From the sequence record OR062945.1: a stretch of DNA of 64,000 bases; one strand, given 5' to 3'. A model generated the notes under the pieces. The model made no database searches and was not told the DNA's origin. It saw only the letters and a list, made by a program, of their open reading frames with translations. Each line of letters begins with the position of its first letter. The first letter of the stretch is position 1. Below are positions 36,936 through 48,230 of the stretch, in pieces. The position numbers were made by a program, and so were the translations under genes. This DNA comes from Escherichia phage 308Ecol101PP.

Positions 36936-37199
36936 ATGAAAACGTATAAAGAATTTATCGCTGAATCTCAATCTTCTACTCTGTCAGAGAACTACGAATC
37001 ATTCTCTTACAACAACGACCATGCAATGTTCTACGACCGAAACATCGGTACTTATGTCCATGTATGGGGTGTTAAAGATGGTAACGTAGTTGTTAAGAAA
37101 AACTCTAAAGAAGGCAATGGTCGTGGCCAGGTAAAAATTACCAGCAAGAAAGCTATCCAAGCTTACGTCGATTATGTTAAACGCGAAGCTGGTATTTAA
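36936..37199 (+). CDS. internal-protein-like protein with capsid-targeting N-terminus
   Basis: 87 aa starting MKTYKEFIAE. Confidence 0.6.
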   Translation: MKTYKEFIAESQSSTLSENYESFSYNNDHAMFYDRNIGTYVHVWGVKDGNVVVKKNSKEGNGRGQVKITSKKAIQAYVDYVKREAGI

Positions 37200-41117: not shown

Positions 41118-41152
41118 TTTACAAACTCTTGAGAGCAGAGTATAATGCTCTC
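41117..41152 (+). promoter_or_regulatory. early promoter with stem-loop
   Basis: ATTTACA, 17-nt spacer, TATAAT inside inverted repeat GAGAGCA/TGCTCTC. Confidence 0.5.
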
Positions 41153-41187: not shown

Positions 41188-41781
41188 ATGAACACACTGA
41201 AGAAACTTGTTGAATTCATCCGCACTAAACTTGGTACTGCTATGGCTAAAAATCTGACTGTCGAAGAACAGTATAACGCAGCTGCAGATAAGTTGATTAC
41301 CCAAATCAAAGAACTAAAAACGGCTTCTGTTAAATCTATTAATGAAGAAAAACGTATTCGCGAACTTGTTATTGAAAAGAATAAGCAAGCCGCTTCTAAG
41401 GAACGTGAAATTCGTAAGCTCTTGGCTGAAGGACAAGATGTTACCATGCATGCCAAGCTTGGTCTTCTGTATCGTCGAACTGCCGAACAACTTAATACAA
41501 AAGCTGACGGGTACGCTGCTATGCGAATTGAAATTGCTCGTAAGGTGGTTGAACTTGATGATGCTCGTCAGAACCTGGCAATCAAACTCGAATACATTCG
41601 TGAAACTCGAGCAGCCAATGCCCTTGGTATCTCTACGGCTGATGATGTAATTGAAATCGCTGCACTGACTAAGGTTGATATCGAAGACACTCTGACTCGT
41701 GTTGAAACGTTCAATGGCACTCCAGCTGGTGTCGAAACCACTTCTGCTGATGTACAAGAATATATTAACTCTTTGAAATAA
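41188..41781 (+). CDS. coiled-coil protein
   Basis: 197 aa, heptad-rich. Confidence 0.5.
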
Positions 41782-41789
41782 AATAATAC

Positions 41790-41812
41790 GGAGGACTCCG
41801 GTCCTCCTTTTG
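41790..41812 (+). terminator. rho-independent terminator
   Basis: GGAGGAC-tccg-GTCCTCC followed by TTTT. Confidence 0.6.
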
Positions 41813-41830
41813 GATAATAAAGGAGTTAAC

Positions 41831-42427
41831 ATGCGAAACCAAAATAATGATATTGACTCAATGTTCGAAGAGTTCCGAGATAAGGTAAATCCACCTACGT
41901 CTTTAGTTGATTCATTACGATATGTTGCAACTGGACGTAAATGGTACTGGTCGTCTTCTTATGAGACAACTGAATATGCAAATAACCGAAAATCTTTATT
42001 AGCCCCAGGTATTATGATTCATGATATCGGAGCTATTGCTAAACTAGTTGCAGACCATGATATTAGATTCACTGATTTCATTGCTCCTACGTGGTCTGTT
42101 TGTTGTTTAAACACTGAATGGGACTACATCAGTGAACGTTCAGATGATTACGTAGGCTTTAGAGATAAGCTCTTAAGGTCTAACATGTTTTATATCGATA
42201 CAGAAGTTCTAGTCGATAATAAAAAATATTACTTTACGTTAATCGTCGATTCTGAAACTATGTATGAAGGCAAGCCTTTGCTTAAAAGAGTTGATGCTTT
42301 AAGTGCTATTGATGCGCTTTATGAAACTATGGTTGTTAGTCCTAATTTCACTAACAATTTAATCCTTGAGCAATTTATTATGGAATGTAGAGAATATGTC
42401 AAAGCCAACCCTATACATGCCAATTAA
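41831..42427 (+). CDS. hypothetical protein carrying FIMECRE junction motif near C-terminus
   Basis: 198 aa from ATG after AAGGAG RBS. Confidence 0.55.
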   Translation: MRNQNNDIDSMFEEFRDKVNPPTSLVDSLRYVATGRKWYWSSSYETTEYANNRKSLLAPGIMIHDIGAIAKLVADHDIRFTDFIAPTWSVCCLNTEWDYISERSDDYVGFRDKLLRSNMFYIDTEVLVDNKKYYFTLIVDSETMYEGKPLLKRVDALSAIDALYETMVVSPNFTNNLILEQFIMECREYVKANPIHAN

Positions 42428-42791
42428 GCCCTGGGCATACGAATACAAACGTAAATTAATTCCTAATGAAGTGTTGTTTGGTCCTATTTTAGCTTTAGCA
42501 TTTTTAATCTTTATGATTATAGGAGCTATTTTAGATTCCAATAAAGTTATATCGTCTGATGCAGCATTTTCATTAATGTTCGTCGCACCACTTATTGTAC
42601 CGTTTTTATTAATGCCTATTAATTGGGTAGGATATTGGCACCAAGGCCGTCATCACAGAGCCCGATTAAGAGAATGGAAAGTTCAGTGCGCAAAAGCCCA
42701 AGCTCAATATGATGAAGCTGTTAAAAAGTATGAATATGAAGAAGCTATGGAATTCGTTAAGGAAATAAGATGCAAAAGCCTCAACTCTTAA
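42396..42791 (+). CDS. small membrane protein with conserved C-terminal tail
   Basis: 131 aa, hydrophobic segments, ends EFVKEIRCKSLNS. Confidence 0.5.
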   Translation: MSKPTLYMPIKPWAYEYKRKLIPNEVLFGPILALAFLIFMIIGAILDSNKVISSDAAFSLMFVAPLIVPFLLMPINWVGYWHQGRHHRARLREWKVQCAKAQAQYDEAVKKYEYEEAMEFVKEIRCKSLNS

Positions 42792-43129
42792 CCGTATGGC
42801 CGTCTCTTGGTGAGAACATTCTAATTTTTATTATGAGTATTGGCATGGGATTTGCCTTTGGATTAGTTGGATTTCTTATTGACGGAGTTGTGTTAGGATT
42901 TATAGGGAATACAGGTGGATTCACAGACCAATGGCAGGACCTAAGATACACCCAAGCTTTTGCATCTATCGCATCATTTTGTACTGTAGTCTATTTTTAC
43001 TACGATTTTATAAACCATAACAAGAAAAATAAAAAGGTTTACGCTTCTCAAATGATTAGTTATAATGAACTCCTAGCTAGACGTGAAAATGAAACAATAG
43101 AAAACTTTATTAAGGAATGTAGAAAATGA
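42770..43129 (+). CDS. small membrane protein with conserved C-terminal tail
   Basis: 119 aa, ends ENFIKECRK. Confidence 0.55.
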   Translation: MQKPQLLTVWPSLGENILIFIMSIGMGFAFGLVGFLIDGVVLGFIGNTGGFTDQWQDLRYTQAFASIASFCTVVYFYYDFINHNKKNKKVYASQMISYNELLARRENETIENFIKECRK

Positions 43130-43431
43130 GTAAGATTATTGAAATTAAAGTACCAGAGTTTAATGATGCTAAATCCGCTTCAGATGCAATTTATAAACTT
43201 CTGAATCAAGCTGAACGTATCGAAGAAGAAGCAACAAAGATCGCGGACCAATATGCTGTATCATTTTCTGTAGGTGATTATGGTAGCGGTCGTACTTATT
43301 ATCCTAAGGGTGAAATTGTATCCCAGTGGATGAAAGATGAAATTGAAAATAATGGTGGTGATGTTAAACGTGAAGGTAATGGTTACGTTATTACTGAAGG
43401 TGCTTGGGTTTCGTCTTCTGCGATGTGCTAA
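43126..43431 (+). CDS. hypothetical protein, member 1 of tandem trio
   Basis: 101 aa, C-terminus GAWVSSSAMC. Confidence 0.55.
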   Translation: MSKIIEIKVPEFNDAKSASDAIYKLLNQAERIEEEATKIADQYAVSFSVGDYGSGRTYYPKGEIVSQWMKDEIENNGGDVKREGNGYVITEGAWVSSSAMC

Positions 43432-43440
43432 GGAATCATT

Positions 43441-43713
43441 ATGTCTAAAGAACAAACCGAACTGGCTGAAGCCGTAGCAAAAATCTATGCAGCTATTGAG
43501 GCTGCCAAAGAAATTGCTGATAAACAAAACACAACATTCAACTTGTATCCAGCTTATGGTATGGGTGGAACCTATCATTCACCCGGACAACTTAAAGCCG
43601 ATCTTGAACGTTGTACAAAAAACGGCTATGCCGAATGGGCTGACGTTTACCAATACGACTACAACCTGAGCCTCGAAACTGGTGGTTGGATTGCATCTTC
43701 TCACACTTGCTAA
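43441..43713 (+). CDS. hypothetical protein, member 2 of tandem trio
   Basis: 90 aa, C-terminus GGWIASSHTC. Confidence 0.55.
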   Translation: MSKEQTELAEAVAKIYAAIEAAKEIADKQNTTFNLYPAYGMGGTYHSPGQLKADLERCTKNGYAEWADVYQYDYNLSLETGGWIASSHTC

Positions 43714-43722
43714 GGAAACCAT

Positions 43723-43920
43723 ATGTCTCGTGAATTAGATTGTGCTGTACGTACGGCAGTAGCTGCTCTGGAAAACCTGTTCCAAATTGCAACAGAAGAA
43801 CGCGAAGAAGTTACATTGTGGATTGAAGATAACGCAGGTCTGAATCTCCAGGACGCGATCTCATTATCCAATAATAGCATTACTGTTCAAGGCTGGGTAT
43901 CATCTAGTTATTCTTGCTAA
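43723..43920 (+). CDS. hypothetical protein, member 3 of tandem trio
   Basis: 65 aa, C-terminus QGWVSSSYSC. Confidence 0.55.
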   Translation: MSRELDCAVRTAVAALENLFQIATEEREEVTLWIEDNAGLNLQDAISLSNNSITVQGWVSSSYSC

Positions 43921-43924
43921 AACA

Positions 43925-43962
43925 GTTTACAACAAGATAGGGCTATGTTATAGTAGTCCTAT
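43925..43962 (+). promoter_or_regulatory. early promoter with stem-loop (PeSL-type)
   Basis: GTTTACA, TGTTATAGT, ATAGGGCTA/TAGTCCTAT. Confidence 0.5.
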
Positions 43963-43982
43963 CAAATTAAATGGAGTCCACA

Positions 43983-44222
43983 ATGATTTATTACGAAAGT
44001 ATCGGAACCAAAGTGGTTGGTAAAACCATTACTCGCGAAAAGTTTGCAAAGATATTCGATATGCGTTATAAAAAATCTGAACACAAAGGCATCCGATTCG
44101 AAGATGCGCACTGTACAATTTGTCCTTATAATGAAGACATAAACGGTACAATCGTTCCATTGGTAGAGGCTTCACATGATGACCTCTGGGATGAATATAA
44201 TATCGCATGTCGTGAAATTTAA
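43983..44222 (+). CDS. hypothetical protein
   Basis: 79 aa from ATG after TGGAG RBS. Confidence 0.5.
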   Translation: MIYYESIGTKVVGKTITREKFAKIFDMRYKKSEHKGIRFEDAHCTICPYNEDINGTIVPLVEASHDDLWDEYNIACREI

Positions 44223-44246
44223 GTTAATTAATCCGAGGAAAATATT

Positions 44247-45203
44247 ATGATGTTAGTTATTGGTTCTCGTGCACTTCACTATCATGGTCTTATTGATTCT
44301 AACGCTATCAAAAATAGTGATTGGGACTTTATTGCAGACCAAGGTTCTTGGAATGCATTCAAAAATCAAATGATGGGTGTATATGTTCATCAAGATAACC
44401 CTGATGTCCAAGTTTTCAAATGCTTCCATAATGGACGCGAAACTCATTTTGAAGCATATATTGTTCCGGCAATCACTAATGTCCGTGAATTAGTCGGTGA
44501 ACTCACTCCTGAAGATTTCACGTCTTCTTATGACCTTTTAAAATACGCCAAGAAAAATTTGACTAAAGACCGTTTGAACGGGTTTTACTGGGCAACTCCT
44601 GAGATATGTCTTGCAATTAAGATGTCTCATCGTTTCAAGAAAAATAATCCATTCTTTTTAAAGACTATGAACCATATTCAGTATCTTCGTGGTAAAGGTG
44701 TTACACTGAACGATGAACTTACTGAAATTATGCTGAAACGCCAGAAAGAAACCTTGAACTATGCTCACCCGATTCTTGACACTTCTAAAAGTGCGTTCTT
44801 TAAAGATGACATCTATACATATGACCATGATACTATTCATGAAGCCATTGCACTAACAGACCGTCCGGCTTATACGTTTTATATGAAAGACGGTTCTGAA
44901 GTAATGACCTCACGCGAGAAGTTTGAATCACTTCCGGAAATGGTCAAATTGGCCGGTGTATATGAAGAAACATGTGTACTAGCGTTAGAACGTTCTCAGA
45001 TTCCTAATGGCTTTGAAATCCATCCTCGTGATAGTTTTATGATGGCATTAGAAAAGGTCTGTACTTCAATCACATCAGGCTGGTTCCGTGAGTATGCCTG
45101 GGAGAACTATGGCAAAGTAGTAAGTATGTATCAAAGCTTAGGACACGACGATTACGTCAAGCGTTTCAAACAAAATTTTCATATGGTAAAACCTTTCAAA
45201 TAA
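44247..45203 (+). CDS. hypothetical protein with possible nucleotidyltransferase-fold signature
   Basis: 318 aa; VIGSRALHYHGLIDSNAIKNSDWDF resembles G-S ... D-x-D. Confidence 0.4.
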   Translation: MMLVIGSRALHYHGLIDSNAIKNSDWDFIADQGSWNAFKNQMMGVYVHQDNPDVQVFKCFHNGRETHFEAYIVPAITNVRELVGELTPEDFTSSYDLLKYAKKNLTKDRLNGFYWATPEICLAIKMSHRFKKNNPFFLKTMNHIQYLRGKGVTLNDELTEIMLKRQKETLNYAHPILDTSKSAFFKDDIYTYDHDTIHEAIALTDRPAYTFYMKDGSEVMTSREKFESLPEMVKLAGVYEETCVLALERSQIPNGFEIHPRDSFMMALEKVCTSITSGWFREYAWENYGKVVSMYQSLGHDDYVKRFKQNFHMVKPFK

Positions 45204-45215
45204 TTTCACCAAACT

Positions 45216-45250
45216 GTTTACAAGGTCTGTAGTTGTTGATACTATAGACC
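45216..45250 (+). promoter_or_regulatory. early promoter with stem-loop
   Basis: GTTTACA, TACTAT, AGGTCT/AGACCT. Confidence 0.5.
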
Positions 45251-45282
45251 TATCAAAACAAATGAGTGAATGGAGATACAAA

Positions 45283-45483
45283 ATGACTACTTTGAATAAA
45301 CGTTTCGGTAAAGCTAAACCTGGCTGTGCAGCAGAACGTCGTTACATTTTCGCTCAGTTAGAAGATGTAGAGTATCAGATTAATCAAGTTCACATTACTG
45401 GCATCGAGCCTATGTGTGGCCTTGAAGCTCTTCGTGAAGTTCGTGACGGGTATCGTCGTGATATCGAAGAAATGTCAAAATAA
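45283..45483 (+). CDS. hypothetical protein
   Basis: 66 aa from ATG after TGGAGA RBS. Confidence 0.5.
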   Translation: MTTLNKRFGKAKPGCAAERRYIFAQLEDVEYQINQVHITGIEPMCGLEALREVRDGYRRDIEEMSK

Positions 45484-45521
45484 GTGTACAAACTGATAGG
45501 GCTATGTTATAGTAGTCCTAT
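45484..45521 (+). promoter_or_regulatory. early promoter with stem-loop (PeSL-type)
   Basis: GTGTACA, TGTTATAGT, ATAGGGCTA/TAGTCCTAT. Confidence 0.5.
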
Positions 45522-45541
45522 TAAAACATGAGGAGAATAAT

Positions 45542-45847
45542 ATGAAATTAACAGAAACCAACCGAATTGGTCTTTTAACAATACTTGCATCACCTTTTTA
45601 CGCAGCTCTTTCTGTTGCAGTATTACAAAAGGCTTACGATATGGATGGTGTTCCTGGTTTTGTATTCTTATCACCGTTTTTGCTATTCGTTGGAGCATTG
45701 TTATTATACGCCACGACTAGTTTCGACCATAATGTCTGGGTCAATTATAAATGTAAATTGTCTGAAGAAGAACACGCAGAAGCTCGTAAAAAAGCTATTG
45801 AATCTACCAATCTAGAAAATTTCATTAAAGAATGTCGAGGAAAATAA
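45542..45847 (+). CDS. small membrane protein with conserved C-terminal tail
   Basis: 101 aa, ends ENFIKECRGK. Confidence 0.55.
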   Translation: MKLTETNRIGLLTILASPFYAALSVAVLQKAYDMDGVPGFVFLSPFLLFVGALLLYATTSFDHNVWVNYKCKLSEEEHAEARKKAIESTNLENFIKECRGK

Positions 45848-45848
45848 T

Positions 45849-46535
45849 ATGAATAGTTCTAAAGTGTTTAATAGTCAAGCTCGTGCAGTAGGTGGTTTTG
45901 CTCATGCGATTAAAAACGACCAGATTAAAAACGAGCCTATGTTCTTTAACTGCGATTTGAATTTTGCTTTTGATAATGGCGGCCCGATTACTCGTAGCTT
46001 TATCCAAAATCTTCCTGATGATTGGAAAGACTCGGATGTAGTATTTGATTCACGAGTCCACATGCTGATGCCTGGTTGGTATCCTGCTATTCCTGGATAT
46101 CACCATGATGACGTACCACGCCCAGATATTCCAACAGGACAACATTTTATTACTGCAGGACAACCTGATTATGACAACCCTCGTTACCATTCTGAACATA
46201 TTCTTGGTCTTGTTAACGCTGATGTGTGTCCTACTCATTTTGCAACAGGAACTGCAGAGTTCAGTCAGATTCCTGATGGCGAACTTATCTATCGCCAGTG
46301 GCACAAAGAAGTCCTCGAAAAAATTGAAAAAGGTGAACTAGAGAAATGGGAAGCTCCAGATCGTACTCTTCTTCAGTTTGATTGGCAAACATGGCACACT
46401 GGTTCTCGTGCAATTAGTAATGGATGGCGTTGGTTCGGACGTGTATCTCGTAATACAGACCGAGTTAAAAAGATTACCAATGAAATTCGTGTCAACGCTC
46501 AAGTTTATCTAGAATTCCCTATGGAAGGCTGGTAA
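45849..46535 (+). CDS. hypothetical protein, possible 2OG-Fe(II) oxygenase-like
   Basis: 228 aa; YHHDD and distal WHTGSRAIS...GRVS loosely fit HxD...H...RxS. Confidence 0.3.
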   Translation: MNSSKVFNSQARAVGGFAHAIKNDQIKNEPMFFNCDLNFAFDNGGPITRSFIQNLPDDWKDSDVVFDSRVHMLMPGWYPAIPGYHHDDVPRPDIPTGQHFITAGQPDYDNPRYHSEHILGLVNADVCPTHFATGTAEFSQIPDGELIYRQWHKEVLEKIEKGELEKWEAPDRTLLQFDWQTWHTGSRAISNGWRWFGRVSRNTDRVKKITNEIRVNAQVYLEFPMEGW

Positions 46536-47026
46536 TGATTAACAAAACATATTGGTCTAATATAGACGATGACAACGAAGGTATTTCATACTATTCAGTA
46601 GATTGGACGGGATGTCCATCCTACTTAGTGAAACATATTTGCCAAGAATTTAAAATCGACCAGCCAGCAGGTATTATTGTGAACAGATACATTAATGGAT
46701 ATCAACCTATCGATGAAGTAATACGAACAACTCAAGCTGATCTTGAAAAGTTTTTCAATAAGTGCCAATGGATAACAGGATGGATTATATTTGTACCGTC
46801 GGTATGGTTTTTTAGTACTAAAGTAAGTGCCTTTGCTGTACTAGATATTATCGCTATCTTATTAGCATCTACTATTGTAAGTATTATTGGTGGTATTATT
46901 GGTGGAGGTACTGTAGGCATCATTATTAATCTTGTTAAAAGTAGTTTACAGGAACGTAAAGACAAGATAAAGGCCAAGAATAATGAAGTTGAACGTTTTA
47001 TTACCGAATGCAGGAATTTGAGATGA
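46535..47026 (+). CDS. membrane protein with conserved C-terminal tail
   Basis: 163 aa, Gly/Ile-rich TM segment, ends ERFITECRNLR. Confidence 0.55.
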   Translation: MINKTYWSNIDDDNEGISYYSVDWTGCPSYLVKHICQEFKIDQPAGIIVNRYINGYQPIDEVIRTTQADLEKFFNKCQWITGWIIFVPSVWFFSTKVSAFAVLDIIAILLASTIVSIIGGIIGGGTVGIIINLVKSSLQERKDKIKAKNNEVERFITECRNLR

Positions 47027-47259
47027 GTATAGCAATTTACATTAAATCAGAATCATGTGATAGTTATCTGTACACATACGATAAAGACGTGTCAGAAGAA
47101 AAAATCAAAGACGATCTTAATATGGACCTTGATATGTTCTGTCCTATTGCAGATTACAAACTTGCGGTCTCTAATAGTGAAAGTCCATCTAAAGAAACGC
47201 GCATTGAAGAATTTATGTCCGAATTAATGGCTAAATCATGGGACCGAGATGATGAGTAA
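47023..47259 (+). CDS. hypothetical protein
   Basis: 78 aa; ATGA-coupled start. Confidence 0.5.
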   Translation: MSIAIYIKSESCDSYLYTYDKDVSEEKIKDDLNMDLDMFCPIADYKLAVSNSESPSKETRIEEFMSELMAKSWDRDDE

Positions 47260-47707
47260 GAAAAATAAAGTGAAAGAACTATCAGCCGGTATTATTTTCC
47301 TTACCGAAGATAAAGAATTATTCATGGGGCGTGTAACTGGTTCTCGTCCTAAAGGTTCTTTAGCTCATCGGTGGGATATTCCTAAAGGTCGTGTCGAGCC
47401 CGGTGAATCTCCTATCGAAGCCGCTATTCGTGAATGCGAAGAAGAAACTGGGTTTACACAATATGACCCTGCCTTCCTGAAAGACCTAGGTGAACATCAT
47501 TACTCAGACAATAAGAATATTCATCTGTTCCTATATACCATCCCTGTAGAGCACGAGCAATTCAGAAACAGTGTTTGTAATTCCTATCATACGTTCCCAG
47601 ACGGACGACAGATTCCTGAATTTGATGCATTCGCTTTAATTAAACCTTCTCAGTGGGAATATGTAATGGGCAAATCATTATATAAGGTGCTCACTACCAT
47701 CCTATAA
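47249..47707 (+). CDS. nudE: Nudix hydrolase
   Basis: 152 aa; Nudix box GRVEPGESPIEAAIRECEEETGF; adjacent to e as T4 e.1. Confidence 0.9.
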   Translation: MMSKKNKVKELSAGIIFLTEDKELFMGRVTGSRPKGSLAHRWDIPKGRVEPGESPIEAAIRECEEETGFTQYDPAFLKDLGEHHYSDNKNIHLFLYTIPVEHEQFRNSVCNSYHTFPDGRQIPEFDAFALIKPSQWEYVMGKSLYKVLTTIL

Positions 47708-47741
47708 GTAATAAATACCTCCTATAAACGTGGGAGGTATT

Positions 47742-48230
47742 ATGAATATATTTGAAATGCTTCGTAATGACGAAGGTCTTAGACTGACTTTATACAAAGA
47801 CACTGAAGGCTTTTGGACAATTGGCATAGGTCATTTAGTAACAAAGAACCCGTCTTTAGCTGTAGCTAAAGCTGAACTTGACAGAATGATCGGGCGTAAA
47901 TGCAACGGTACAATTACCCTTGATGAGGCTGAAAAGTTATTTAATGAAGACGTTGATAAAGCTGTTCGCGGAATCTTGGGTAATGTTAAACTTAAACCGG
48001 TATATGATTCTTTAGATGCGGTTCGTCGATGTGCATTGGTCAATATGGTCTTCCAAATGGGTGTAGCAGGCGTCGCTGGTTTTACTAATTCTCTTCGTAT
48101 GCTTCAACAGAAACGTTGGGATGAAGCGGCAGTAAATCTAGCACAATCTAAATGGTATCGTCAGACACCTAATCGCGCGAAACGCGTAATCTCAACATTT
48201 AAAACAGGAACTTGGAAAGCGTATATATGA
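47742..48230 (+). CDS. e: lysozyme (endolysin)
   Basis: 162 aa [31 protein letters not shown]..., near-identical to T4 lysozyme; GGGAGG RBS. Confidence 0.96.

Follow-up and report, generated by a model that had tools for sequence, protein, structure and literature searches.

A conserved C-terminal motif on otherwise unrelated e.2-e.5-type proteins of T4-type phages, and its possible docking to the PspA-like protein e.6

The window analysed here, i.e. the whole 64,000-nucleotide stretch of Escherichia phage 308Ecol101PP (OR062945.1), derives from a Mosigvirus (RB69-like) and carries a cluster of homologs of the T4 genes e.6 to e.2. The e.6 homolog (41188..41781, + strand), a PspA/IM30/Vipp1-like protein belonging to the ESCRT-III superfamily on the basis of homology and an AF2 model, is the proposed partner of the protein tail considered below. 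Upstream of it lies a promoter-like site (TTTACA-17-TATAAT, 41118..41146, +) that is a consensus match only, at 11/12 positions, and between e.6 and e.5 a terminator-like stem-loop with a T run (41790..41807, +) would attenuate read-through into the tail-bearing genes. Of the five ORFs that follow, A, B, C and E are homologs of T4 e.5, e.4, e.3 and e.2, with full-length homology and the gene order e.6-e.5-e.4-e.3 ... e.2-nudE-e (tblastn and BLAST clustering against RB14 and T4), and D is Mosigvirus-specific, without a T4 counterpart. ORF A (41831..42427, +; 198 aa, 48% identical to RB14/T4 e.5) is soluble, with no TM segment predicted. Two TM segments are found in each of ORF B (42396..42791, +; start ATG 42396, MSKP..., matching phrog_2604 and T4 e.4), ORF C (42770..43129, +; 36-39% identical to Tequatrovirus e.3) and ORF D (45542..45847, +; phrog_9798), and in ORF E (46535..47026, +) they follow an N-terminal soluble domain. 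The first-pass annotation had given all five ORF ends correctly, and its four small membrane proteins are B, C, D and E: each contains a hydrophobic hairpin, and the annotation of phage 55 lists them as transmembrane proteins. A PeSL-like promoter/stem-loop lies upstream of ORF D (45485-45521), and repeated promoter/stem-loop (PeSL) cassettes at 43937 and 45496 flank the insert that carries D.

The tail common to these ORF ends is real, strict in four cases and variant in one. It reads LEQFIMECR in A (42365-42391, +; 11 more codons to the ORF end), IENFIKECR in C (43097-43123, +), LENFIKECR in D (45812-45838, +) and VERFITECR in E (46988-47014, +), and in B it takes the form AMEFVKEIR (42744-42770, +), an EFVKEIR variant with Ile replacing Cys. 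A six-frame scan of the whole window for E-x-F-[IV]-x-E-C-R returned only the copies in A, C, D and E, all on the + strand at ORF 3' ends, 1-11 codons before the stop and within 41.8-47.0 kb; a loose F[IV]..C[RK] pattern added a single match, within a 9-codon ORF. The strict pattern occurred in 0/300 codon-shuffled windows, and the looser F[IV].[ED]C[RK] a mean of 0.18 times per shuffle (300 shuffles) as against 4 observed. The motif is thus present far beyond chance. Across T4-type tails the core form is Φ-x-x-F-(I/V)-x-x-C-(R/K), and the motif is best read as a protein-level short linear motif of general form Φ-x-x-[F/W/Y]-[I/V]-x-x-[C, rarely I/M/S/A]-[R/K]. The residues at i, i+3, i+4 and i+7 are hydrophobic and probably form the last turns of an amphipathic helix, whose helical state is inferred, as is its cytoplasmic placement (via the positive-inside rule). 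A low-confidence AF2 model of ORF A (pLDDT 61.5) shows the tail as a helix at the C-terminus (residues 177-192) that follows a loop.

Apart from the tail, the carriers have little in common. ORFs A-E match five different PHROG families. When they are compared two by two with BLAST, the top match falls on the tail in 7 of the 10 pairs, among them every one of the six formed by A, C, D and E; upon removal of the tails no significant pairwise BLAST match is left among A-E. Comparison of tail-less alignments by hhalign gives a probability below 7% for all pairs except e.4/e.3, at 21% over 86 columns, and, this weak signal aside, the earlier description of the ORFs as otherwise unrelated holds. The proteins at the e.5 position display a weak but collinear mutual relationship, and the e.5 family itself is narrow, with 14 clusters from Mosigvirus and Tequatrovirus only.

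At every conserved tail residue the codons vary synonymously: Phe is encoded by TTT 46 times and TTC 12 times, Cys by TGT 32 times and TGC 28 times, and Arg by six codons (CGT, AGG, AGA, CGA, CGC and CGG). About 25 shared nucleotides had been claimed for the junctions, a figure that holds for C and D alone, which share 22/27 nt and differ in five codons, four of them synonymously; the remaining pairs among A-E share 12-21/27 nt. In 5/5 junctions the ATG of the next gene lies from 2 nt inside the R codon to 10 nt past it, and the next gene's Shine-Dalgarno is built, junction by junction, from differing codons of the motif or after it. Since codons vary freely and the Shine-Dalgarno sits at differing places, selection acts on the peptide and not on the DNA junction. 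A nucleotide-level element, either a recombination linker by which modules are shuffled or a translation-coupling/RBS cassette serving the downstream gene, with the peptide as a by-product, is consequently very improbable and largely refuted, although several features had seemed to favor it. The motif is always within ~30 nt of the next start codon, a closeness to be expected of any C-terminal motif given the tight gene packing general in these clusters. Codons for K-E (AAGGAA) or R-x (AGGAA) provide the Shine-Dalgarno in 4/5 junctions, but at varying motif positions, and in e.5-type proteins the motif stands 9-25 codons ahead of the stop. In T4 e.3 and e.2 the residues past C-R follow RBS-like strings such as AGGAAAnnnAAATGA, and only such residues, e.g. 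the T4 ending CRK[IL]K-stop encoded by AGGAAAnnnAAATGA, look coupling-shaped. PeSL cassettes do serve for shuffling in the hyperplastic regions of T4, and such cassettes lie here at 43937 and 45496, in the same region as the tails; however, like the module-boundary sequences of T4-type and lambdoid phages, they are DNA repeats between genes whose conservation is at the nucleotide level, whereas the tail is coding and conserved as amino acids. Neither nucleotide conservation exceeding that of the amino acids nor an intergenic promoter/stem-loop characterizes the element, which is coding with 12-22/27 nt identity, and the recombination/coupling junction offered by the first-pass annotation is not supported.

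The tail is not confined to the window genome, but occurs in T4, RB14 and other Straboviridae. Within Straboviridae, at least 10 lineages have it at the end of e.2-e.5 homologs and of additional families; besides T4/RB14 these lineages include Gaprivervirus, Dhaka-like phages, Winklervirus, Jiaodavirus, Karamvirus, Muldoonvirus, Ishigurovirus, Biquartavirus and Pseudotevenvirus. It is kept in the RB14 e.5, e.4, e.3 and e.2 orthologs at an overall identity of only 30-48%, and in a five-genus alignment of e.2 (A1) the tail F, I, C and R are among ten invariant columns. A scan of T4 (127 kb) finds the pattern at e.5, e.3 and an e.2 remnant only, and Tevenvirinae genomes encode from 3 to at least 6 tail proteins each. 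Scans of IMG/VR with the single e.2 protein returned near-identical contigs only, and an alignment-based e.2 scan added T4-, Dhaka- and Gaprivervirus-like contigs with no new diversity. The C-terminus of thymidine kinase, YVSLCRKHW, matches the loose pattern and was set aside as a false positive.

The motif is confined to the stretch that follows e.6. Where e.6 is at least 53% identical to that of the window, the next ORF ends in the strict motif at 24/24 loci, 516-865 nt past the e.6 stop, and all other strict copies are on the same strand and at most 6.1 kb downstream of e.6. In the distant phages Aeromonas phage 65, Nando and avDM2 a pair of e.6 and an e.5-like gene has relocated jointly with the motif retained (beside genes 31/30.9 in Aeromonas phage 65, between nrdD and nrdG in Nando), and these three phages have one or two soluble motif proteins by e.6 and no two-TM set. 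VR7 has neither e.6 nor e.5 within the 16 kb examined, yet has intact tails on e.4', e.3 and e.2; since other Gaprivervirus-like contigs carry e.6, VR7 may have lost it through a recent deletion. In the most distant e.6 contexts (L034, L035), e.6 has no clear motif beside it. Because all e.6-bearing phages are related and their gene order is conserved, the co-occurrence of e.6 and the tail is partly inheritance.

The e.6 of the window is 88% identical to RB14 e.6. Its family profile (A6) matched Vipp1/PspA chains in the PDB with E=2.6e-4, collinear over 1-146, and the AF2 model has an N-terminal helix and a long hairpin, with Vipp1 structures as the top Foldseek matches; the N-terminal amphipathic helix and the alpha1-alpha2/3 hairpin that follows it are collinear with solved Vipp1/PspA structures. 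A search of 1.84 billion representatives with the e.6 profile reached 45 compact phage clusters only, with no direct reach to cellular PspA, and the PspA link was obtained by scanning members of these 45 clusters against Pfam. One relative, P0077 (E=3.9e-17 to the e.6 profile), scores 39.0 bits against PF04012 (cut-off 33.9), collinear from 6-146 to 2-143. PF04012 is matched by 4/31 members of the e.6 family and the window e.6 itself is without a Pfam match, so that its membership of PF04012 is one of transitive homology only. An e.6 ortholog of Metamorpho has been reported to match PspA 4WHE in HHpred at 99.9% (PMC7862958), and the homology of e.6 to PspA/IM30/Vipp1 had been pointed out before in a genome announcement. 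By profile and model comparison e.6 is PspA-like, in agreement with that announcement.

Conserved as protein and encoded downstream of e.6, the tail is better taken for a common docking peptide than for a recombination scar. Tentatively, and with a little less than an even chance of being right, it is proposed to be a common docking helix through which its carriers bind a single partner, for which the helical hairpin of e.6 is the most plausible candidate; it is above all e.6 as that partner that is presumed here. The carriers are the soluble protein of e.5 type and a number of two-TM proteins of the inner membrane, predicted to be N-in/C-in and without detectable relationship to one another (e.4, e.3, e.2, D and further ones in other genera). 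Their genes lie directly downstream of e.6, and docking would recruit or regulate a PspA-like polymer at the inner membrane during infection, much as LiaI anchors LiaH or PspB/C engage PspA. Recruitment of PspA-family members by small membrane proteins, LiaI and PspB/C among them, has been described (PMC9239133). In PspA-PspB/PspC of E. coli and LiaH-LiaI of B. subtilis, as here, the genes that come after one of the PspA family encode small proteins of the inner membrane whose C-terminal helices are cytoplasmic; by adjacency to a PspA-family gene and by topology B-E resemble PspA partners and are candidates for binding. The phage system differs in that it is phage-encoded under an early-type promoter and has several unrelated putative partners plus a soluble one, all with one short tail. 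B, C, D and E show no homology to PspB, PspC or LiaI, and their Pfam/NCBIfam matches at E<=0.01 are sub-threshold chance matches only. The earlier suggestion of a functional C-terminal motif of a membrane-protein family stands as to protein-level selection and wide occurrence but not as to a single membrane family, the motif being also on soluble e.5; superinfection exclusion or lysis control, put forward at the same time, finds no specific pointer, and the strongest contextual link is the adjacent e.6.

It is also possible, though doubtful, that the tail is a protein interaction helix with a partner other than e.6, either zipping the tail-bearing proteins to each other in one hetero-oligomeric membrane complex or binding some other common factor, be it host PspA/PspF, a protease or a further protein of the phage. 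A coiled coil would suit the a/d-type hydrophobic spacing and the long charged helices ahead of the motif, several tail proteins occur together in every Tevenvirinae genome, and VR7 retains its tails in the absence of e.6 from the locus. However, no other candidate co-occurs as consistently as e.6, and since Aeromonas phage 65, avDM2 and Nando lack the two-TM set, a zipper of multiple membrane proteins cannot be the ancestral role. Less probable still is a relic of descent, in which old tandem two-TM duplicates would have diverged except at the helix end, with no shared partner. The similar N-termini of e.4 and e.3 (MSKP.../MQKP...) together with their weak collinear hhalign signal, the same two-TM, N-in/C-in layout with a C-terminal helix of 30-45 aa in all, and the resemblance of the D tail to a recent copy of the C tail are consistent with such descent; yet the soluble e.5 family, of a different fold class, carries the motif too, the other family pairs show no comparable signal, and the keeping of just 6-9 residues through such divergence would still demand a specific constraint.

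A gp21 prohead-protease site or capsid-targeting-like signal was suggested by the likeness of the tail I-x-E to MKTYQEFI(A/T)E of nearby-encoded internal head proteins, and by the F-I-T-E shared with N-terminal targeting sequences at 36936, 48227 and 49311 of the window, but it is rejected with near certainty. The targeting sequence is an N-terminal MKTYxEF(I/L)xE with an invariant Glu at P1, whereas the tail is C-terminal, many tails have D, K, M, G, Q, Y or S where the Glu would stand, its invariant F, I/V, C and R/K are not the protease consensus, and most carriers are inner-membrane proteins. A termination-stalling peptide and a C-terminal degron were ruled out by the position of the motif, 0 to 25 codons from the stop, and the Cys as a metal or disulfide ligand because several families have I, M, S or A in its place and the tail is presumably cytoplasmic.

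A wider and more speculative proposal, itself rather unlikely as matters stand, extends docking to e.6: the T4-type phages may have their own Psp/ESCRT-III-like membrane-maintenance module, in which an e.6 polymer would be combined with exchangeable adaptors via a portable C-terminal docking helix. The adaptors would comprise the soluble protein of e.5 type together with unrelated two-TM proteins, the set of which is specific to each lineage, and new membrane proteins would enter the module by gaining the 9-residue tail. The e.2-e.6 genes of T4 are orphan genes conserved in over a thousand sequenced phages, and a shared docking tail, if true, would join five or more of them in one system with the PspA-like e.6 as its handle. 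It would also exemplify the spread of a short linear motif from one phage protein to other, unrelated ones, and would show how PspA/ESCRT-III-type polymers can be recruited by swappable adaptors. The tail offers a precise, mutable 9-residue target for study of phage control of inner-membrane integrity or proton-motive force, and in annotation the motif marks module members that are otherwise unrecognisable by sequence.

The MIM1 motif of ESCRT-III, (D/E)xxLxxRLxxL(K/R), is likewise a short C-terminal amphipathic helix with hydrophobics at i, i+4 and i+7 and then a basic residue, a likeness of spacing only, and there too one motif is common to many different proteins of an ESCRT-III-type system. 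In ESCRT-III, however, it is the subunits of the polymer that carry the motif, which binds MIT domains in Vps4-type ATPases, whereas in the phages putative adaptors carry it, and neither an MIT nor an AAA partner is seen. Searches of Pfam, NCBIfam and PHROGs gave no function for any tail protein, nor did Pfam or PHROGs give a holin family match; the literature searched by the names e.2-e.6 was uninformative and yielded no paper on the tail. The two-TM tail proteins do resemble class II holins in size, N-in/C-in topology, charged cytoplasmic C-terminus and a cluster upstream of the lysozyme gene e, but the T4 holin T is unrelated and the motif is found also on soluble proteins and far from gene e.

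The five ORF ends and C-terminal tails described in the first-pass annotation were all borne out by re-reading of the window. The tail-gene cluster precedes nudE (47249-47707) and lysozyme gene e (47730-48230) on the + strand. Over 41800-47300 the window has 99% identity with Escherichia phage ST0, and with many further Mosigvirus (RB69-like) phages the identity is 95-97%. When compared with annotated RB14 and T4 by tblastn and BLAST clustering, ORFs A (41831-42427), B (42396-42791), C (42770-43129) and E (46535-47026) are the homologs of T4 e.5, e.4, e.3 and e.2 respectively, and ORF D (45542-45847) is phrog_9798, without a T4 counterpart; the e.6 homolog (41188-41781) lies directly upstream of ORF A, all on the + strand. 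Translation of the 64-kb window in all six frames yields four copies of the strict motif E.F[IV].ECR, each on the + strand, 1-11 codons ahead of a stop and within one 5-kb stretch, and 300 codon shuffles yielded none; the ORF B tail is a variant, EFVKEIR, with Ile where the others have Cys. Lengthened by one turn, the motif is Φ-x-x-F-(I/V)-x-x-C-(R/K), where Φ is hydrophobic, and the tails are LEQFIMECR (A), AMEFVKEIR (B), IENFIKECR (C), LENFIKECR (D) and VERFITECR (E). Between the two tail-gene groups is a 318-aa protein (44247-45203, +) with Pfam domains DUF7277 and DUF7275, which is kept in Gaprivervirus, Dhaka-like, Winklervirus and Karamvirus phages and in Serratia phage 92A1.

The proteins that carry the tail belong to five separate PHROGs, and a Pfam search with A-E gave no family. 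Pairwise BLAST finds the tail as the top match in seven of ten pairs; every pairing of A, C, D and E with one another, six in all, is among these seven, and no match is left after tail removal. Family alignments compared by hhalign without the tails give <7% probability for every pair except two: LC53_123, an e.3 ortholog (98.7%), and e.4 versus e.3, a weak collinear signal (21%) from proteins whose N-termini, MSKP.../MQKP..., are also in common. The ORF A protein is soluble, and B, C, D and E are, as had been proposed, small membrane proteins, each with a hairpin of two transmembrane segments (two-TM). The positive-inside rule predicts an N-in/C-in orientation for these four, so that the tail would be cytoplasmic, closing a 30-45 aa charged helix.

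The tail had been attributed either to a recombination or coupling junction or to a functional C-terminal motif, and the evidence points to conservation of protein, not DNA. Orthologs of the T4 group keep the tail at only 30-48% overall identity; in RB14 the proteins end, up to the stop, in EKFVKECREYVKAINVSSK (e.5), KFVKESRCKSQN (e.4), KEFVSDCRKIK (e.3) and NNFITECRKLK (e.2). Among over 60 distinct tail instances F is encoded by TTT (46) or TTC (12), C by TGT (32) or TGC (28), I by ATT, ATC or ATA, V by GTG, GTT or GTA, and the basic residue by six Arg and two Lys codons. C and D have the same peptide over E-N-F-I-K-E-C-R, yet differ there by four synonymous changes, and an e.2 alignment of five genera has just ten invariant columns, four of which are the tail F, I, C and R. 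The Shine-Dalgarno of the next gene falls in the K-E codons in B and C and in codons past the motif in D; in E the R-N codons supply it, and after ORF A there is hardly any. Its placement thus differs among the five junctions, and a shared ribosome binding site fails as an explanation of the motif. Dual coding appears confined to residues past C-R, e.g. T4 CRK[IL]K-stop from AGGAAAnnnAAATGA. The first-pass interpretation is borne out in part: the DNA-level junction is largely refuted and the functional C-terminal peptide stands. The distance of the motif from the stop, 0 to 25 codons, counts against a termination-linked or C-end degron role. Some families have I, M, S or A in place of the Cys (FVKEIR, FIRGIR, WIKEMK, IIKHAR), which therefore behaves like a small hydrophobic residue and not like a ligand.

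Search of other T4-like genomes found the tail outside this genome. Beyond the T4 group it ends the e.2-e.5 families and further, different families in eight lineages: Gaprivervirus VR7, a Dhaka-like phage, Winklervirus LC53, Jiaodavirus Metamorpho, Karamvirus PG7 (five or more copies, including three on successive genes), Muldoonvirus VP8 and Aeromonas phages 65 and avDM2; Pseudotevenvirus phage Nando has the closely related variant FIHSCK. When 127 kb of T4 is scanned in six frames, F[IV]..C[RK] matches only the ORFs of e.5, e.3 and a 53-codon e.2-tail remnant, together with two trivial, non-ORF matches. In the T4 reference (NC_000866; L028 67484-67960, -) e.2 is annotated as 102 aa and its tail NNFITECRKLK, up to the stop, is in that separate 53-codon ORF, ending at the nudE start; e.2 is thus interrupted in this reference sequence, whereas RB14 and other T4-like phages have an unbroken e.2 of 162 aa.

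In all 24 fetched loci with an e.6 at least 53% identical to that of the window, the strict motif closes the ORF directly after e.6, 516-865 nt past the e.6 stop, and every other strict copy is at most 6.1 kb downstream of e.6 on the same strand. In distant Straboviridae the e.6 neighbourhoods are quite different and the next gene still encodes a soluble protein of 244-317 aa with the motif near its C-terminus: in Aeromonas phage 65, where e.6 is beside genes 31/30.9, its tail is LQDFIKECRYELGVYNEK to the stop and the gene after that has LRRFVNECRLLVGKG; in Nando, with e.6 between nrdD and nrdG, the motif is MEKFIHSCKKNVLEKYDP; in avDM2 the tail is VELFVDYCRRTASKK to the stop. The e.5-position proteins of distant phages show weak but collinear mutual relatedness. 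The persistence of a soluble motif gene after e.6 across differing neighbourhoods means that the e.6 and e.5-type pair is ancestral and moves as a unit; two-TM tail carriers are seen only in Tevenvirinae genera and Muldoonvirus. Still more distant e.6 contexts have a degenerate motif, e.g. EDIDSIIKHARSRTRQ to the stop on a 60-aa TM protein, or in some cases no recognisable motif. In the slot after e.6 in PG7 (L009 2489-3157) two short annotated ORFs and an overlapping ORF ending ...DFINYCRGQ... suggest an e.5-type gene that is fragmented or mis-annotated.

Through its relatives and its predicted fold, the T4 e.6 homolog is placed among the PspA/IM30/Vipp1-like (ESCRT-III superfamily) proteins. 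A single-sequence search with e.6 gave no Pfam and no PDB match; a profile of diverse e.6 relatives matched Vipp1/PspA chains in the PDB over residues 1 to 146 (E=2.6e-4), with Vipp1 or PspA as eight of the top nine matches and E. coli PspA 4WHE at E=0.24. One relative, P0077, which matches the e.6 profile at E=3.9e-17, is above the curated threshold of PF04012 PspA_IM30. The AF2 model of e.6 has the N-terminal helix and long hairpin of the PspA/IM30/Vipp1 family, and its best seven Foldseek matches are Vipp1, followed by archaeal CdvB2. This nature of e.6 was already known, having been noted once in the Metamorpho genome announcement, where the ortholog gp163 matched PspA 4WHE by HHpred at 99.9% (PMC7862958). 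e.6 is kept in ~1100 phage records, including Aeromonas phages, and that of the window, with 88% identity to T4, is far more conserved than the neighbouring e.2-e.5 (30-48%). Consensus scans place the best promoter-like site of the region ahead of e.6 (41118-41146) and a terminator-like hairpin between e.6 and e.5 (41790-41807), with no promoter-like match of comparable quality ahead of e.5-e.3. This arrangement suggests that e.5-e.3 are read by attenuated read-through, which would leave e.6 in excess over the tail proteins.

The simplest account of these data would make the tail a docking helix, amphipathic and cytoplasmic, common to every protein that has to engage a single partner, with e.6 proposed as this partner because e.6 alone co-occurs consistently. 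The hydrophobic spacing and terminal basic residue of the tail recall the MIM1 helices of ESCRT-III proteins. Small membrane proteins recruit PspA-family proteins to the membrane, LiaI for LiaH and PspB/C for PspA (PMC9239133). Against docking to e.6, the two-TM tail proteins show no homology to PspB, PspC or LiaI, co-occurrence of tail and e.6 is partly inherited synteny, and VR7 keeps tails though the stretch fetched is without e.6 and e.5 at the locus. There e.4 is N-terminally shortened (88 aa) and beside unrelated genes, one of them cytidine-deaminase-like (L005 1-3000), which looks like a replacement event; e.6 and an e.5-like gene are still present in related IMG/VR contigs. Tail-to-tail zippering or binding of another common partner was also considered, as was a tail merely retained after serial duplication. 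Read with e.6 docking, the whole would be a system of the PspA type that combines membrane partners with a portable docking motif; the searchable literature has no description of the tail motif or of its connection with the phage PspA-like gene. No specific link was found to the superinfection exclusion or lysis control suggested in the first-pass annotation. A gp21 or capsid-targeting-like site was rejected; three window ORFs, at 36936, 48227 and 49311 (+), begin with the capsid-targeting sequence MKTY-x-EF(I/L)-x-E of T4 internal head proteins, and the F-I-T-E that these have in common with the tail was judged coincidental.

The D tail is closer to the C tail of the same genome than the latter is to the tails of its own orthologs, and ~13 residues upstream are also similar, suggesting recent copying of the e.3 3' end onto an inserted gene. 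Recombination may be the means of tail spread, but selection on the peptide is what preserves it. The insert with D is flanked by promoter/stem-loop (PeSL)-like repeats: an exact 26-nt repeat, ATAGGGCTATGTTATAGTAGTCCTAT, an imperfect palindrome, is at 43937-43962 and 45496-45521 (+), both within T4-early-type promoter-like sites (TTTACA/TGTACA-N17-TATAGT), and a third similar promoter and palindrome is between these at 45217-45250. These look like PeSL-type mobile cassettes around Mosigvirus-specific genes including D. Three tandem small ORFs of 101, 90 and 65 aa (43126-43431, 43441-43713 and 43723-43920, +) have the common ending G-W-(V/I)-(S/A)-S-S-x-x-C-stop, a second conserved C-terminal signature of the cluster; their family, phrog_899, is also found in VR7, the Dhaka-like phage, LC53, PG7 and Serratia phage 92A1, with copy numbers from one to five.
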